This document shows, one piece after another, positions 19,812 through 27,134 of a DNA stretch of 29,443 bases; positions within the stretch are counted from its first letter, which is position 1, and every line of letters starts with the position of its first letter. Under the pieces are notes generated by a model. That model did not search any database, was not told the origin of the DNA, and saw only the letters and a list, made by a program, of their open reading frames with translations. Made by a program: the position numbers and the translations under genes. This stretch comes from a virus (Duplodnaviria; Heunggongvirae; Uroviricota; Caudoviricetes). The stretch lies in the IMG/VR virus record IMGVR_UViG_2609459795_000003. One strand, given 5' to 3'.

Positions 19812-20092
19812 TAGTGCCTCAGATGGTCAACCAGACGTGCCACATTGCCTCTGACGGCGACCAGCACGGACAGGAAAATAATGTTGGCCACGATAGTGGC
19901 CCACGATGAATAAGGGTAGATACCGCACAGATACGCCAGCGGTACGGCGCTATAAATGACCGTAAGCAGCCACGCTAAGCGAGATATCCACGGTCGATGT
20001 CTGGAGTCGCCACGACGATAAAACATCAGAGTAATAACAACACAAGCACATAACAGCGCATTTATAGTTGCTGTCGGGTCATTTAGCTCCAC
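19811..20092 (-). CDS. Small multi-TM membrane protein (holin or antiholin candidate)
   Basis: 93-aa ORF with three hydrophobic segments, stop/start overlap with the endolysin gene. Confidence 0.45.
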   Translation of the reverse strand: MELNDPTATINALLCACVVITLMFYRRGDSRHRPWISRLAWLLTVIYSAVPLAYLCGIYPYSSWATIVANIIFLSVLVAVRGNVARLVDHLRH

Positions 20093-20531
20093 CTGAACCT
20101 CCCCGGCGCGTTATGAGCGCCACCAGCGAGCCGATATCCTGATTATTCAGGAACGTCAGGATTTTAACGGCTAAAGCAGAGACGATTACGGCACCAATAG
20201 CATCCAGAGGTTTATCACTGTATCCGGTCAAGTTCGCCAGCTTGGAGCCAACCAACCCAGAGCAAAGGATCCCGGCAATATATGACACGATAAAATATGC
20301 TAGTCGGCGCGATGCACTCAGATCTGCTGCTGTTGCTATGTAGAATACAGCCCCTGCAAATGCGCCAAATACAACGCCGTAATCAGTTCCGGTCAGCAGT
20401 CCATAAATACTAGCGCCCGTTAGGGCTCCACCAGCTAACCCTGTGCCGGAAATCGGATCGGACATTAGCCACCTCTTATTGCAGTGAGTCCTCTCAGAAA
20501 TAGAAATGAGAGGAATAAAAAAGGCCACCAT
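20079..20531 (-). CDS. Putative holin
   Basis: Gly/Ala-rich multi-TM protein upstream of the endolysin; probable start is the internal ATG at about 20465 (MSDPISGTG...) preceded by AAGAGGTGG. Confidence 0.55.
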   Translation of the reverse strand: MVAFFIPLISISERTHCNKRWLMSDPISGTGLAGGALTGASIYGLLTGTDYGVVFGAFAGAVFYIATAADLSASRRLAYFIVSYIAGILCSGLVGSKLANLTGYSDKPLDAIGAVIVSALAVKILTFLNNQDIGSLVALITRRGGSGGAK

Positions 20532-20540
20532 TTGGCAGCC
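20517..20540 (-). promoter_or_regulatory. Degenerate palindrome GGCTGCCAAATGGTGGCC plus T-run after the 268-aa cargo gene
   Basis: Shares the half-site GGCTGCCAA with the perfect palindrome at 21546-21563; followed on the minus strand by TTTTTT. Could be a weak terminator and/or a second operator. Confidence 0.35.
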
Positions 20541-20573
20541 ATAGAATTGATGTAATTATAACTAATTCATTAA

Positions 20574-21380
20574 CTATTTCTTAATGATGCTATTTAACAT
20601 TTCTAATGCAAAAAGCAACATGGAGCTAATAAAATACAATATAACCGCACTGGCAATCGCTCCAATTATAGCCTGGACACTCCAGTGAAAGTAATTTTTA
20701 CCATTAATAACAAACTTAACACTAGGAAACAAAAAGTCGATAAGCTTAATTATTAATGGAATAGCAAAGCTCCATAAGTTCGAAAACAAAATAAAGATAC
20801 AAATAAATGATAAAGCAAATGCACCATCGATTGATAGTTTTGGCGCCAGTTTTGAGGCTGTCCATAAGCTAAGCAAAAAGCCAACTGTCACACCTGAAAT
20901 CTGGATACTTAACATAGTCCAAGCTGTTCTAAAAAATCTAAATTTATTTTTGCACTTGTTAATTAAATCCTGAATCGTAATCCATAACGAGTCAACCCAC
21001 TCATTATCTTCCGATGCTACAATCATTGTGCTGCTATTTGAATTCCTCTCATCAATTCGTAGCTCCATCCAAGATCCATTCATCCTGTTAGACTGTCGAC
21101 TTTGATAAGTTTCAATAGTAAAAATTATTTGATCAATCCTAGTGGCCTGTCTAAAGTATTTCACAAGCTCACCGATAGAATCAACTTTATACCCCTTACC
21201 ATCGAACAAAATAAAAAAAACACATTGAGCACAAACTTCCCTACTTTCCTTTTGAGCTTGCTCATTCATTTTAACGCAGCGTTCGACAATTGCCGTGCTT
21301 AAGCTAATCAAGCTATCTTCATTTATAGAAACACCTGAAATATTCTTGCTTCTGTAAAAATATGACACTTTCGATTCCAC
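20574..21380 (-). CDS. AT-rich cargo protein: soluble N-terminal domain plus C-terminal 3-4 TM helices, unknown function
   Basis: 268-aa ORF, visibly AT-rich; hydrophobic segments in the last ~110 aa. Track start is GTG at 21380 with no convincing RBS, so the true start is uncertain. Confidence 0.55.
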   Translation of the reverse strand: MESKVSYFYRSKNISGVSINEDSLISLSTAIVERCVKMNEQAQKESREVCAQCVFFILFDGKGYKVDSIGELVKYFRQATRIDQIIFTIETYQSRQSNRMNGSWMELRIDERNSNSSTMIVASEDNEWVDSLWITIQDLINKCKNKFRFFRTAWTMLSIQISGVTVGFLLSLWTASKLAPKLSIDGAFALSFICIFILFSNLWSFAIPLIIKLIDFLFPSVKFVINGKNYFHWSVQAIIGAIASAVILYFISSMLLFALEMLNSIIKK

Positions 21381-21511
21381 TCCGCACCAGTCTCGATTTA
21401 GCGCAGGTTAACATAACCACTTCATTGGTAGAAGAAAAGAACTCTTCTTGTCAGAAAGCTACTGTGATATCCCTAAACCTGCAGATGATACAGAACAAAA
21501 TTTAAGCATCA

Positions 21512-21563
21512 ATTGTAGGCGATTTTAAATTCACTTTACAGTTTAGGCTGCCAATTGGCAGCC
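21512..21563 (-). promoter_or_regulatory. Perfect 18-bp palindrome GGCTGCCAATTGGCAGCC adjacent to a candidate promoter for the 268-aa gene
   Basis: Palindrome at 21546-21563; on the minus strand it is followed after 5 nt by TGTAAA (21535-21540), a 17-nt spacer and TACAAT (21512-21517). Confidence 0.4.
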
Positions 21564-21577
21564 GATTGAAGCAGAAA

Positions 21578-21847
21578 TCAATGAGTGCTCATCGATGAAT
21601 TTTTTTCAGCGCCAATCTCACTCAAAAAAGCAAAACCTTTTGACGTTATCTCATTAGCAATCAATCCACCTTCGGCAGATTTGCTTCGTATAACATCGAT
21701 AAAACCTATATCAGCAAGATCTGAAATAGCAAAGTTAACCTCTTTTGCTGAGAGATGAGGTAATGATGCAGCCTGAATTCTAGAATCCTTTGGCTGCAAT
21801 TCATTCACTCGACGTAGTATTTCAAGATGGATAGAGGTCAGTTTCAT
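21578..21847 (-). CDS. AT-rich cargo protein: small putative winged-helix/HTH protein
   Basis: 89-aa ORF with strong RBS (AGGAG, 6-nt spacing) and an upstream extended -10; alternating hydrophobic/charged pattern consistent with a small DNA-binding fold (inference). Confidence 0.5.
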   Translation of the reverse strand: MKLTSIHLEILRRVNELQPKDSRIQAASLPHLSAKEVNFAISDLADIGFIDVIRSKSAEGGLIANEITSKGFAFLSEIGAEKNSSMSTH

Positions 21848-21884
21848 AATGTTCTCCTGTTTTTAATGTTGTTTTACAGAAAAC

Positions 21885-21893
21885 ATTATAACA
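21885..21893 (-). promoter_or_regulatory. Extended -10 promoter element TGTTATAAT upstream of the 89-aa cargo gene
   Basis: Minus strand TGtTATAAT about 35 nt upstream of the 89-aa ATG; no good -35, as is common for extended -10 promoters. Confidence 0.45.
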
Positions 21894-21920
21894 CATTGAT
21901 TTTGATGTAGATTGAATAGA

Positions 21921-21953
21921 AAAAAACCATAAAAAAACCTCGCAATAGCGAGG
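21921..21953 (-). terminator. tR'-like Rho-independent terminator downstream of Q
   Basis: Minus strand: CCTCGC-TATT-GCGAGG hairpin followed by TTTTTTTATGGTTTTTTT, about 110 nt after the Q stop. Confidence 0.65.
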
Positions 21954-22061
21954 TCGTAAAAATTGTTCAACGATAGATACACAAGCCCCATCGTTGAGAA
22001 AATCTTATCCATATTTTTTGAGAAATACAAGTATTATGTCGTTATCTTCGGCGAAAATCGC

Positions 22062-24641: not shown

Positions 24642-25031
24642 TCAGGCGGCTGCACCCGCCGTTTTCTCGTACTTACTGATAGTGATCTCGACCTTCCCTT
24701 CCGGGATAACCGGTCCCCACTCCACCAGCATTCTTTTCACCTGACTGTCGTCTTCCCACACACCCGCGTGGGTCAGGGCGTCAAACAGCGCCTTGTTATA
24801 GTTGTCCAGATCGCGGATCCGGTTATCCGGTGGAAACAACACGATCTCCACTGCAGCAGGTGCCGACGTTGGTTTCGGCAGACGACGTAACTGCTCAACT
24901 ATTGCTGCGCACGCCGCGCTCTGGAATTTTCGCCCCGCCGTGCTTATCAGGCTCTTACCAGCAAACGCCCCTTTGTTGGGGTGTCGCCAGTACGTGTTCA
25001 CGCTGGGCGGAAAAGGCAGAATAAGCTTCAT
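24642..25031 (-). CDS. rusA: Holliday junction resolvase RusA
   Basis: 129-aa ORF beginning MKLILPFPPSVNTYW..., the characteristic RusA N-terminus; typical nin-region location. Confidence 0.8.
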   Translation of the reverse strand: MKLILPFPPSVNTYWRHPNKGAFAGKSLISTAGRKFQSAACAAIVEQLRRLPKPTSAPAAVEIVLFPPDNRIRDLDNYNKALFDALTHAGVWEDDSQVKRMLVEWGPVIPEGKVEITISKYEKTAGAAA

Positions 25032-25387
25032 ACTTTCAGGCCCCTCTCATGTAACCAGTGGGCTGCACGCAGCCTGGCGTTTTCCTCACCGGCAAGCAGT
25101 GAGCGGATAATCCCGACCGCCTCGCTGTCGTCGTCCTTCACCGCGGTATGAAGCGTTATCCCCCGGGCCACGCCACGCTTTATCGTGATGACGCCTTTTT
25201 TCTCCAGAGCACGAAGATGCTCCACCGCTGCATTCACCGAACGGTATCCCAGCATGGTTGCCACCTCCTGATTGGTTGGTGGGAAGCCACGTTCTTTCTG
25301 ATAAGAAATCAGCATATCCAGCACCTGCTGCTGGCATTGAGTTAACGTCGTCATTAAGCCCCCACGTAATTCCCTGACAGATACCAC
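25028..25387 (-). CDS. LexA-like N-terminal DNA-binding domain protein lacking the S24 peptidase domain
   Basis: 119-aa ORF (probable start MTTLTQ at about 25354). Residues MTTLTQCQQQVLDMLISYQKERGFPPTNQEVATMLGYRSVNAAVEHLRALEKKGVITIKRGVARGITL closely parallel the LexA DNA-binding domain; no Ser/Lys peptidase region follows. Confidence 0.55.
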   Translation of the reverse strand: MVSVRELRGGLMTTLTQCQQQVLDMLISYQKERGFPPTNQEVATMLGYRSVNAAVEHLRALEKKGVITIKRGVARGITLHTAVKDDDSEAVGIIRSLLAGEENARLRAAHWLHERGLKV

Positions 25388-25848
25388 TCTTCACCCGATG
25401 CAGCGCGCTTGCTGCTTTTCCGTAAGCACCGCTCACGACGCGCCAGAAAATTGTTTCGTTCTGGCTGGGAGTGGCTTTCACGGAATGCCGCCATCCACAC
25501 GGTTGCAGCACGACGGTATAAGCCCCTGGACTCCAGTTCTTCCGCCTGGCGGGTCAGGCACAAAATCACCCGGGGATCGTTAGTGCCGACATAGAAATTA
25601 CGCACAGGTCTGGTTTCACGAACTGGTTGTGGTTTCGGCTCCTGCGCTCTCTCAGTCAGGCGCGGGAAATGTCTGCGTGTATCTCCTTCACAACGGTGAG
25701 CCACACGTCCACTCTGACGTAACTTGCTTGCTGACTGCAGAACGCGCTGCCGTGAGTAACCAGCAAAAGCATCCGCAATGTCTCCGGAAGTACACCCCGG
25801 ATGGGCTTCAATGAATTTCTGAACGTCATTTAACAGACTCATGATCAC
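25354..25848 (-). CDS. PerC-like transcriptional regulator (putative)
   Basis: 164-aa ORF; C-terminal segment AEELESRGLYRRAATVWMAAF resembles the conserved PerC/Pch motif as I recall it; probable start is the ATG at about 25842. Confidence 0.4.
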   Translation of the reverse strand: MIMSLLNDVQKFIEAHPGCTSGDIADAFAGYSRQRVLQSASKLRQSGRVAHRCEGDTRRHFPRLTERAQEPKPQPVRETRPVRNFYVGTNDPRVILCLTRQAEELESRGLYRRAATVWMAAFRESHSQPERNNFLARRERCLRKSSKRAASGEEWYLSGNYVGA

Positions 25849-26786
25849 CCCCTGAATCCTGCCGGGATCTGGCTGTAGTCCACATTGTCGTAACTGGATT
25901 TGAAGTACGGGTCTTCGCGTTTTTCGGTGTACGTGCTTACGGACGGCGATAAGCGCAGGGAAAGCTCATCCCATTTTTCCCGCAGCTTCGACGGGCTGAG
26001 CACGTTACGGCACCAGAACGGATCGCGGCTGACGCGGCTGTACATCTCGCAGATTTGTTTGTGAGTACGACCATCCTGCACACACATCAGGCGAATTTCG
26101 TTTGCCCAGGCTGTCCAGTTCGGTTCTTTGGGACGAACCACCTCGCCGTCACATTCGGCAGCCTGCTCGTACAGGGCGATGATTTTTTTCCAGAGCCACT
26201 GTGCGCAGGTCAAATCATCCTGCGTCCCCCACTGGCGCTTTTTAGGGCTGAATACAACCGCATCAGGATGGCGAGTTAAAAAATCCTGTTCAGCCGTCTG
26301 CGTGTCCGGTTGCGAAGCGTCCGGACGAGAAGTTTTTTTATCTGACGGATCATGTTTTGATTTTACTGACGGATCCCCGCCAGATTCTGACGGGTGAAAA
26401 CCCGCTTTTTTGCCAGATTTCGACGCATCAAATTTTGACGGGTCAGATTTTGATGCGTCAGATTTTGACGGGTCAGAATCTGACAGTTGAGAAAAAGCCG
26501 CAGCCTGAAGCTTCGCAACGTTAAGCTGATAAACATTCGACGCATTGCGGTTACCCTGGCGACGCGCCTTACGCGTTAACCAGCCTTCTGCTTCCAGCCG
26601 TGCGATAGCCGTTCTGACGGTACTCATCCCCGCGCCAATCTGGCGGGCAATGGTTTCAATTGATGGCCAGCACACACCTTCGTCATTACTGAAATCAGCC
26701 AGGCGTGCCATAATTGCCACGCTGGATAATTTCATGCCTGACGCTGCGCAACCATCCCATACATAGCCGGTTAATTTAGTGCTCAT
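25845..26786 (-). CDS. Replication initiator (lambda O-like replisome organiser) with internal iterons
   Basis: 313-aa ORF; N-terminal wHTH-like domain, central repetitive linker (DPSKSDASKSDPSKFDASKS) encoded by 15-bp DNA repeats, distinct C-terminal domain; sits after the Cro/CII-like genes like lambda O. Confidence 0.6.
   Translation of the reverse strand: MSTKLTGYVWDGCAASGMKLSSVAIMARLADFSNDEGVCWPSIETIARQIGAGMSTVRTAIARLEAEGWLTRKARRQGNRNASNVYQLNVAKLQAAAFSQLSDSDPSKSDASKSDPSKFDASKSGKKAGFHPSESGGDPSVKSKHDPSDKKTSRPDASQPDTQTAEQDFLTRHPDAVVFSPKKRQWGTQDDLTCAQWLWKKIIALYEQAAECDGEVVRPKEPNWTAWANEIRLMCVQDGRTHKQICEMYSRVSRDPFWCRNVLSPSKLREKWDELSLRLSPSVSTYTEKREDPYFKSSYDNVDYSQIPAGFRG
26341..26490. repeat. 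Iteron array (candidate phage replication origin) inside the initiator gene
   Basis: About 8 copies of a ~15-bp unit (consensus near TCAGATTTTGACGGG); four consecutive copies at exact 15-bp spacing 26435-26490; an AT-richer stretch on the 3' side (26325-26370). Confidence 0.6.
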
Positions 26787-26795
26787 GACCGACCT

Positions 26796-27134
26796 CTATT
26801 TCCCTGAATTTACGACGAAACTTTTCGAGCGGACTGAAGCATTCATGCTCATAGCCTTCGCGGAGGTAGATAACCCGTTGTGTTTCCGGCTCCCAACGAA
26901 TGACTCTGACGGGTACTCCGTAGTGATCTTTGAACCAGCGGTTAACTTGTCGCAAAGGACTGTCTCCTTTTGCCGGTTAAAATCACCCACAGCCCACTCT
27001 GCAAAGCTGTGGGTTACAATTACCCTGCCACCTGGTACATTTACTGCATAGCAATACTCCACCTTCGCTTTTCCACCCGGTACAGGAAGCGCAATCAGTT
27101 GCGAGCGACGGTAGTGTGTTGTTAAACTATTCAT
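26796..27134 (-). CDS. Hypothetical protein with apparent frame discontinuity (possible frameshifted gene or two overlapping small genes)
   Basis: 112-aa ORF whose C-terminal third is low-complexity, while an alternative frame over 26776-26955 encodes a convincing 59-residue peptide (...[58 protein letters not shown]) with only a TTG start preceded by AAGGAG. Confidence 0.3.

Follow-up and report, generated by a model that had tools for sequence, protein, structure and literature searches.

YfdN of a lambdoid prophage joins a winged helix to a PerC/ANR-type core at the ren position of the early operon

The gene that directly follows the replication initiator in the prophage examined here is yfdN, an early-operon gene of a lambdoid prophage of the SfV/CPS-53 type, and its product combines a winged helix-turn-helix domain with a three-helix core of the PerC/ANR type. 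The analysis covered a 29,443-nt stretch of viral DNA (IMG/VR record IMGVR_UViG_2609459795_000003), hereafter the window. Both the gene and its PerC label already stand in public annotation; our results confirm that annotation, refine the domain map and describe no new system. New here are the domain map itself (winged helix, linker, PerC/ANR core and conserved tail), the separation of YfdN from PerC/Pch proteins proper and the hypervariability of the ren position that the gene occupies. By analogy with characterised proteins, we tentatively propose that YfdN is a two-domain protein tethered to DNA, which, upon prophage induction, would remodel or neutralise a host regulator bound to DNA.

Identity, start codon and distribution of yfdN

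The original prediction placed an open reading frame at 25354-25848 and gave no strand; this frame is present on the minus strand and comprises 164 codons counted from a GTG in the ORF list of the window. The RefSeq (PGAP) annotation likewise starts yfdN at GTG 25848 and assigns it 164 aa. Translation more probably begins at the ATG at 25842 than at this GTG. The ATG is preferred because it is preceded by an AGGGGG Shine-Dalgarno sequence at 25848-25853 and by the upstream stop codon at 25845-25847 (the coding-strand context, read directly from the sequence, is AGGGGG-TGA-TC-ATG), and because the N-termini of homologues align on Met-Ser-Leu. In the alignment, Met-Ser-Leu/Ile at the position of this ATG opens nearly all homologues, very distant ones included. 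Residue numbers below refer to the 162-aa form of YfdN that begins at ATG 25842.

The genes on either side leave yfdN no intergenic region of its own. The TGA stop of the initiator lies only 2 nt upstream of the yfdN ATG, and the yfdN stop overlaps the ATG of the next gene (TAATG). Because the yfdN Shine-Dalgarno sequence sits inside the last codons of the initiator, next to that TGA, initiator and yfdN are translationally coupled, and together with the downstream gene for a LexA-domain protein they form a translationally coupled trio. The last yfdN codons also serve as the GGGGG ribosome-binding site of this downstream gene. Features and coordinates are collected in Table 1.

Table 1. Features of yfdN, its product and the adjoining genes, in window coordinates
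Feature	Position	Strand	Remarks
yfdN coding sequence	25354..25842	-	162 aa + stop; preferred ATG start
AGGGGG Shine-Dalgarno of yfdN	25848..25853	-	5 nt before ATG; within last initiator codons
Winged helix-turn-helix, residues 1-61	25660..25842	-	AlphaFold2 pLDDT 83-91; translation checked
Variable linker, residues 62-88	25579..25659	-	predicted disordered; pLDDT <50 at 63-84
Three-helix PerC/ANR-type core, residues 89-149	25396..25578	-	Pfam PerC; includes motif 25483-25545
Tail GEEWYLSGNYVGA, residues 150-162	25357..25395	-	predicted disordered/low confidence; conserved; translation checked
Replication initiator, lambda-O kind	25845..26786	-	N-terminal HTH_36 winged helix; upstream of yfdN
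Four to five 15-bp direct repeats CAGATTTTGACGGGT	26414..26477		inside initiator gene
Downstream gene, LexA DNA-binding domain only	25028..25354	-	ATG overlaps yfdN stop

The window protein is 98% identical over all 164 residues to YfdN of E. coli K-12 (b2357), which is encoded in the cryptic prophage CPS-53 and annotated as 'uncharacterized protein YfdN'. The two are the same gene and show no substantial difference; the window copy sits in an intact prophage. The upstream neighbour in K-12, yfdO, is what is left of this initiator gene. CPS-53 itself is decayed, and the operon upstream of yfdN is broken there.

In RefSeq the product is named 'PerC family transcriptional regulator' or yfdN, and PHROG 1324 ('transcriptional activator') matches residues 2-163 with E = 8.5e-79. 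Of 5,426 complete E. coli genomes searched with Megablast, 2,674 carry the gene, in most cases at 95-99% identity. It is also carried by phages SfV (orf40), SfII, SfIV and mEp460 and by several Stx2a/Stx2c-converting phages, and the copy in Salmonella phage ST64B is 69% identical. Thus yfdN ranks among the commonest prophage genes of E. coli, and Shigella serotype-converting phages and several Stx2 phages carry it as well.

A full-text literature search for yfdN found no experimental test of YfdN itself. The gene was deleted merely to clean up a ler::lacZ reporter strain (PMC5931665), and over-expression of K-12 yfdN is listed among the ASKA clones that alter glycogen accumulation (PMC2853380). 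It also appears in a five-gene fragment from a filamentation screen and in a predicted interaction network.

Domain architecture and family membership

We modelled YfdN with AlphaFold2 from 18 homologues (mean pLDDT 77). The N-terminal domain consists of helices at residues 3-13, 19-25 and 31-44 and a beta hairpin at 47-52/55-60, which is the H1-(b)-H2-H3-b-hairpin fold of winged helix-turn-helix domains of the MarR/ArsR kind. A Foldseek search of the PDB with this domain returned generic winged helices only (MarR, MepR, SmtB, ArsR, PerR and Z-alpha, with rmsd values of 2-3 Å over about 60 residues and E values of 0.04-0.2), and a profile search of PDB sequences yielded no solved structure at E <= 10. 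Some family members give weak Pfam matches to MarR_2, Penicillinase_R and HTH_24. The original prediction had set apart the N-terminal ~60 residues as an extension of unknown role; the extension is real, and its description can now be refined to a bona fide winged helix at residues 1-61 plus about 27 residues of disordered linker. Winged helices can bind proteins instead of DNA.

Both folded domains of the window protein are net basic (+4 for the winged helix and +7 for the core; family means +2.5 and +5.1), and the recognition helix and wing of the N-terminal domain are themselves basic. These charges are indirect evidence for sequence-specific DNA binding, and the winged helix would probably place YfdN on DNA.

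The C-terminal core is predicted to form helices at residues 90-105, 109-122 and 126-148, and residues 90-148 are modelled at pLDDT 88-94. The peptide AEELESRGLYRRAATVWMAAF, quoted in the original prediction as the conserved PerC/Pch motif, is indeed encoded in this region (25483-25545, minus strand; translation confirmed). Profile search bears out the PerC family label: Pfam PerC (PF06069) matches residues 100-151 with 36.1 bits against a cut-off of 22.6 (E = 7.8e-9), a match that covers only positions 5-56 of the 90 in the model, and the labels in RefSeq and PHROGs agree with it. By BLASTP, YfdN is 37% identical over 46 residues to EPEC PerC of pMAR2 (E = 1e-6).

We aligned YfdN with PerC (pMAR2, EPEC E2348/69), PchE (located via published deletion primers) and a PchABC-type fragment from an O157:H7-derived phage record. 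All share the core AxxLExxG[LF]YRRAAxxW...R....R..C, in which R, R, A and C are invariant and A, L, E, W and R nearly so, and YfdN carries the PerC core motif LExxG[LF][YF]RRAAxxW with the R and C that follow in helix 3. The alignment also separates two sub-types. PerC, PchE and the PchABC-type fragment continue into a C-terminal module, D[IL][KR]x[AG]V..Y..MG[LI]..[FW]R.Y, at about Pfam positions 57-90, whereas this module is absent from YfdN, which ends there in WYLSGNYVGA and groups with short relatives that end in [WC]YL[AS]Gx[FY]xG. Nor is YfdN a small single-domain protein of about 90-105 aa in the manner of PerC and Pch. The resemblance noted in the original prediction therefore holds for the three-helix PerC core and fails for the PerC/Pch C-terminal module. 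YfdN is a member of the PerC domain family in Pfam's sense and not a PerC/Pch-type protein, and because the C-terminal module is missing, PerC/Pch activity is not simply transferable to it.

The same core also resembles the ANR family. It has the three-helix fold and the signature residues of ANR proteins (compared by eye): the signature A, E, A, W, A, R, C (PMC4983702) falls in register, by inspection, on A100, E104, A112, W116, A119, R136 and C139. Structurally, it matches an Aeromonas phage 'ANR family transcriptional regulator', itself a predicted structure (Foldseek against BFVD; rmsd 0.6 Å over 56 columns, target-normalised TM 0.91). ANR proteins bind AraC-family regulators and H-NS (PMC4983702, PMC5570504). 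The three-helix domain might thus be an ANR-type anti-activator that inactivates a specific transcription factor, either of the AraC/XylS family or a phage regulator, and does not act on H-NS. The near-identical core fold and the signature residues fit such a role, as do the matches of 25 of the 45 two-domain relatives described below to the ANR model (E <= 0.01; best E = 4e-9), and a PerC-like protein of a phage-inducible chromosomal island (PICI) acts as a repressor, in that case of LEE1 (PMC11773190). YfdN itself, however, scores only 23.5 bits with NCBIfam ANR NF033650 (E = 3.7e-5), below the cut-off of 32. ANR proteins are stand-alone, single-domain proteins of <10 kDa that accompany AraC-family regulators (PMC4983702), whereas YfdN carries a winged helix, and no AraC/XylS-family gene was present among the scanned neighbours of yfdN or in 18.5 kb of annotated sequence surrounding an identical copy. 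On balance, we consider this role rather unlikely.

The two-domain architecture is not peculiar to the window. A profile search over all 1.84 billion cluster representatives (threshold E <= 0.001) gave 159 matches to the YfdN profile, many of them full-length two-domain proteins of 133-165 aa. Across both domains, 45 two-domain members could be aligned, whose identities to the window protein range between 73% and 23%; every one of them matches phrog_1324, and 44 match Pfam PerC (E <= 0.01). The combination of a winged helix with a PerC/ANR core is thus a real and conserved architecture, corresponding to PHROG 1324. Conservation is uneven along the protein, mean pairwise identity across the family being 24% for the winged helix, in which the recognition helix is strongly variable, 8% for the linker, 32% for the core and 31% for the tail.

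The tail reads WYLSGNYVG in YfdN and follows the conserved pattern hydrophobic-L-[AS]-G-x-[FY]-x-G. A regular-expression count found it in 32 of the 45 two-domain relatives, one of these being an off-register match in a read-through protein (P0111), and it recurs in single-domain relatives (P0190, P0209, P0210 and P0214). Overlap with the ribosome-binding site of the downstream gene may account for part of the conservation of the tail. The motif nevertheless persists at 25% identity and in front of different downstream genes.

Position in the early operon and timing of expression

In transcriptional order, the window shows a divergent cI-like repressor gene, then a cro-like gene, a CII-like gene (YmfL), small ORFs, the initiator and yfdN; downstream of yfdN come, in order, genes for the LexA DNA-binding-domain protein, RusA, a KilA-N protein, a DUF968 protein and a Q-type antiterminator, and then the lysis genes. 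An AT-rich segment lies at 20-22 kb, downstream of Q. The 15-bp repeats inside the initiator gene are candidate origin iterons, by analogy with lambda O. The original prediction assigned the gene to the nin region, which is right in the broad sense that it lies between the replication genes and Q; more exactly, yfdN is the first gene after the replication initiator, which is the position of ren in lambda.

We compared this arrangement with that at related loci, of which a narrower family alignment yielded nine. An initiator gene followed by the relative, with overlapping or abutting stop and start, is found in the window, in Citrobacter, Franconibacter and Kosakonia genomes (L007, L009 and L010), where the relatives are 26-47% identical, and, for still more distant relatives, on contigs from metagenomes and draft genomes (L012, L017 and L024). 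Elsewhere, a two-domain relative directly follows a gene with a Phage_lambda_P domain and so occupies the lambda ren position (L021), another follows RecT (L014), and in two integrase/AlpA islands similar to phage satellites the relative stands at or close to the start of an operon (L015 and L023). Within the otherwise conserved early module, yfdN is the most divergent position: between the window and L009, identity is 61% for CII, 83% for the N-terminal domain of the initiator, 77% for RusA, 73% for the KilA-N protein and 49% for the LexA-domain protein, and 27% for YfdN.

Such a position might point to a role in replication, with YfdN serving either as the counterpart of lambda P in helicase recruitment or as an origin regulator. 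Even relatives of only 26-27% identity keep the gene order and the overlap with the initiator, the early region examined showed no P-like or DnaC-like gene, and compared with the window, L009 and L010 have a different C-terminal initiator domain as well as a different yfdN allele, all of which speaks for this idea. Against it, the L021 relative stands beside a P-like gene rather than in its place, the relatives in L014, L015 and L023 have no initiator upstream, and neither family profiles nor PDB searches revealed sequence or fold similarity to helicase loaders. Furthermore, the window, L009 and L010 share the DNA-binding domain of the initiator (77-83% identity) and the repeat-encoded linker, yet their yfdN alleles are 26-27% identical, so the winged helix of YfdN does not co-vary with the origin. 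A replication role is therefore very unlikely indeed.

Two more specific candidates were rejected in the course of this comparison. One was a helicase loader that replaces lambda P, set aside on account of the L021 relative behind its lambda-P-like gene and of the others that have no initiator upstream. The other was binding of the origin or its iterons by the winged helix, set aside on account of the shared initiator DNA-binding domain and repeats beside yfdN alleles of 26-27% identity.

The ren position raises a different alternative, namely that YfdN is Ren-like and protects the phage from exclusion or other defences rather than regulating transcription. Lambda Ren lies at the same position after the replication genes and, according to the profile comparison, also begins with a small winged helix; the PHROG 'Ren-like exclusion protein' is matched by 6 of the 45 relatives (best E = 2.4e-5), and hhalign aligned the N-domain profile of the family with the Ren family profile from residue 1 of both at 82% probability (E = 1e-5). 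The divergence of yfdN, by far the highest in the module (26-27% identity, as against 61-83% for most neighbours in L009), is also a pattern frequent in host-conflict genes. The same N-domain profile, however, scored almost as well against an unrelated winged helix, that of the initiator (77% probability; 28.6 versus 29.1), which suggests that the Ren signal may reflect generic winged-helix similarity. Lambda Ren alone against the profile of close homologues reached a probability of 0.6%, and Ren has no PerC-like domain. A Ren-like function thus appears quite improbable. On the strength of this negative first comparison (0.6%) and of the control (82% versus 77%), we treat the likeness to lambda Ren as probably generic winged-helix similarity. 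We know of no biochemical mechanism for Ren, so the analogy would in any case predict little.

The gene layout also bears on when YfdN is made. Since yfdN is coupled to the initiator and, downstream of the cro-like gene, forms part of the early rightward operon, YfdN would be expected together with the early lytic proteins after induction, and it is most likely an early lytic protein and not a regulator expressed in the lysogen. A consensus scan detected no promoter-like or terminator-like site on the yfdN strand nearby; the scan is insensitive, as it showed no promoter-like site in the cI/cro intergenic region either.

This layout is hard to reconcile with the function put forward in the original prediction, that of a lysogenic-conversion regulator made in the lysogen and acting on host virulence regulons, as PerC and PchABC act on LEE1/ler. 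In its favour, YfdN has the PerC-family core, PchABC are themselves prophage-encoded and activate ler (PMC5931665, PMC4764244), and over-expression of yfdN changes glycogen accumulation in the ASKA listing mentioned above. The evidence nevertheless does not support it: yfdN has no intergenic region of its own and is coupled inside an early lytic operon, and its product lacks the C-terminal module common to PerC, PchE and the PchABC-type fragment. Nor is the gene tied to LEE. Since it occurs in about half of complete E. coli genomes, K-12 included, a LEE-specific role cannot be its general function. Effects within the PerC family vary as well, some members activating, some having no effect and one repressing (PMC5931665, PMC11773190); the divergent PchD and PchE barely affect ler (PMC5931665), and the PICI protein represses LEE1. 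Lysogenic conversion is, in our judgement, an unlikely role for YfdN. Virulence regulation is what the name 'PerC family transcriptional regulator' implies, but the evidence does not support carrying that function over to this protein.

Proposed mode of action and comparison with known systems

Our preferred reading remains the tentative one of a DNA-tethered protein that acts on a DNA-bound host regulator. Under this proposal, the winged helix-turn-helix would probably place YfdN on DNA, and the flexible linker would join it to the PerC/ANR core and the short conserved peptide at the C-terminus, both of which probably work by contacting other proteins. YfdN might then remodel or neutralise a host regulator bound to DNA, the prime candidates being silencers of the H-NS/StpA type and the alternative being a transcription factor, and transcription would be relieved or redirected once the prophage is induced. 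Co-transcription and translational coupling with the initiator would ensure that YfdN is made alongside the early lytic proteins and not in the lysogen. Against this reading stand the missing PerC/Pch module, the varied effects of PerC-family members, the strong variation of the recognition helix across the family and the ability of winged helices to bind proteins.

A regulator that works through protein contact fits YfdN because of the known actions of its relatives: Pch activates LEE1 by displacing H-NS/StpA/Hha/YdgT complexes (PMC4764244), and ANR proteins act by binding AraC-family regulators and H-NS (PMC4983702, PMC5570504). Its extra winged helix and two basic folded domains suggest, by analogy, that YfdN is a DNA-tethered modulator that would be made at prophage induction. 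Should YfdN prove to oppose H-NS-type silencing, or to capture a host regulator, at induction, this could be a general phage strategy.

More speculatively, YfdN-type proteins might form a distinct class of early proteins of phages and satellites, in which a winged helix tethers a PerC/ANR module and a hydrophobic-LAGxYxG docking peptide, and which would act as DNA-targeted anti-silencers or hijackers of nucleoid proteins and free the induced element from H-NS-type repression. We regard the existence of such a class as doubtful. If it were real, the extreme divergence at the yfdN position would reflect different DNA targets or an arms race.

Among known systems, lambda Ren shares the position of YfdN and lacks its PerC/ANR domain, and its likeness to YfdN is no stronger than that of an unrelated winged helix. 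The ANR proteins (Aar and relatives) share with the YfdN core the three-helix fold and the signature residues; unlike them, YfdN has two domains, and its gene sits in the early operon of a phage, where no AraC partner lies close by. PerC (89 aa) and PchE (90 aa) are single-domain proteins, whereas YfdN, at 162 aa, has an additional winged helix and linker. Genetic context differs too: perC belongs to the perABC operon, and pchE ends a primase/SSB operon, just before the capsid genes, of a satellite-like element, whereas yfdN follows a lambda-O-type initiator. PchE was considered as a possible YfdN-type protein and rejected, being a 90-aa single-domain protein in that satellite-like element. 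PerC and PchABC are the only ones for which LEE1 activation has been demonstrated. What PerC, Pch and YfdN have in common, beyond the core, is that all are carried on horizontally acquired elements.

PchE and the two-domain relatives of YfdN in other loci

In O157-type strains, the gene for the PerC protein PchE ends an operon of DUF4222, primase and SSB genes (L020). Genes for capsid, protease and portal proteins come next, a layout that looks more like that of a capsid-forming phage satellite than that of an ordinary prophage. Distant two-domain relatives of YfdN are located within integrase/AlpA/DUF3950/DUF1482 islands (loci L015 and L023), where repressor pairs (a WYL protein, or an ImmA-like peptidase plus HTH) adjoin them. 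This island setting with its repressor pairs suggests that phage satellites also employ the two-domain architecture.

Some database entries join YfdN to Dam, to the HTH_36 domain of the initiator or to RusA (P0019/P0020, P0023/P0024 and P0038/P0039). Each forms a singleton cluster, and these fusions most likely reflect a frameshift, deletion or mis-call rather than real architecture.

Features of the window and of the pchE locus (window positions unless L020 is indicated)
Feature	Position	Strand	Description
pchE	L020 4048-4320		90-aa single-domain PerC protein
AT-rich segment	about 20000-22000		between Q-type antiterminator and lysis genes; GC 0.37-0.41
268-codon ORF	20574-21380		within AT-rich segment
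LexA DNA-binding-domain gene	25028-25354	-	108 aa; Pfam LexA_DNA_bind, E = 3.7e-19
Initiator gene	25845-26786	-	directly upstream of yfdN
15-bp direct repeats	26414-26477		CAGATTTTGACGGGT, four to five copies; within initiator gene
DUF4222 ORF	26776-26955	-	59 codons
112-codon ORF	26796-27134	-	coupled to end of CII-like gene

Genes near yfdN and an AT-rich segment

The product of the gene downstream of yfdN is essentially a LexA DNA-binding domain only, without an S24 peptidase domain, and could be a non-cleavable LexA mimic produced during induction. RefSeq starts this gene at an ATG at 25354, and the ORF list at a GTG 33 nt further upstream that overlaps yfdN.

The 112-codon ORF is conserved in three loci carrying yfdN relatives (L007, L009 and L010) and overlaps the DUF4222 ORF in a different frame. 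Because RefSeq annotates the DUF4222 ORF alone in an identical copy of this region (L001), one of the two ORFs may have been missed or mis-called.

The AT-rich segment, which contrasts with a GC content of about 0.55 elsewhere in the window, lies at the cargo-gene position of Stx phages. AT-rich DNA is a likely target of H-NS.

Modular build and internal repeats of the initiator

Comparison of the window with L007, L009, L010 and the more distant L012, L017 and L024 indicates that the initiator is modular. Its C-terminal domain is common to the window and L007, the N-domains of which differ, and its N-domain is common to the window, L009 and L010, the latter two carrying a different C-terminal domain (named Phg_2220_C after the Pfam assignment in L012, L017 and L024). 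The early region examined showed no gene resembling those for lambda P, DnaC or DnaB.

The repetitive SDPSKSDASKSDPSKFDASKS linker of the initiator is encoded by the 15-bp direct repeats, and the related initiators of L009 and L010 have kept a similar, likewise repeat-encoded peptide. These repeats are probably origin iterons, placed within the initiator gene much as in lambda O.
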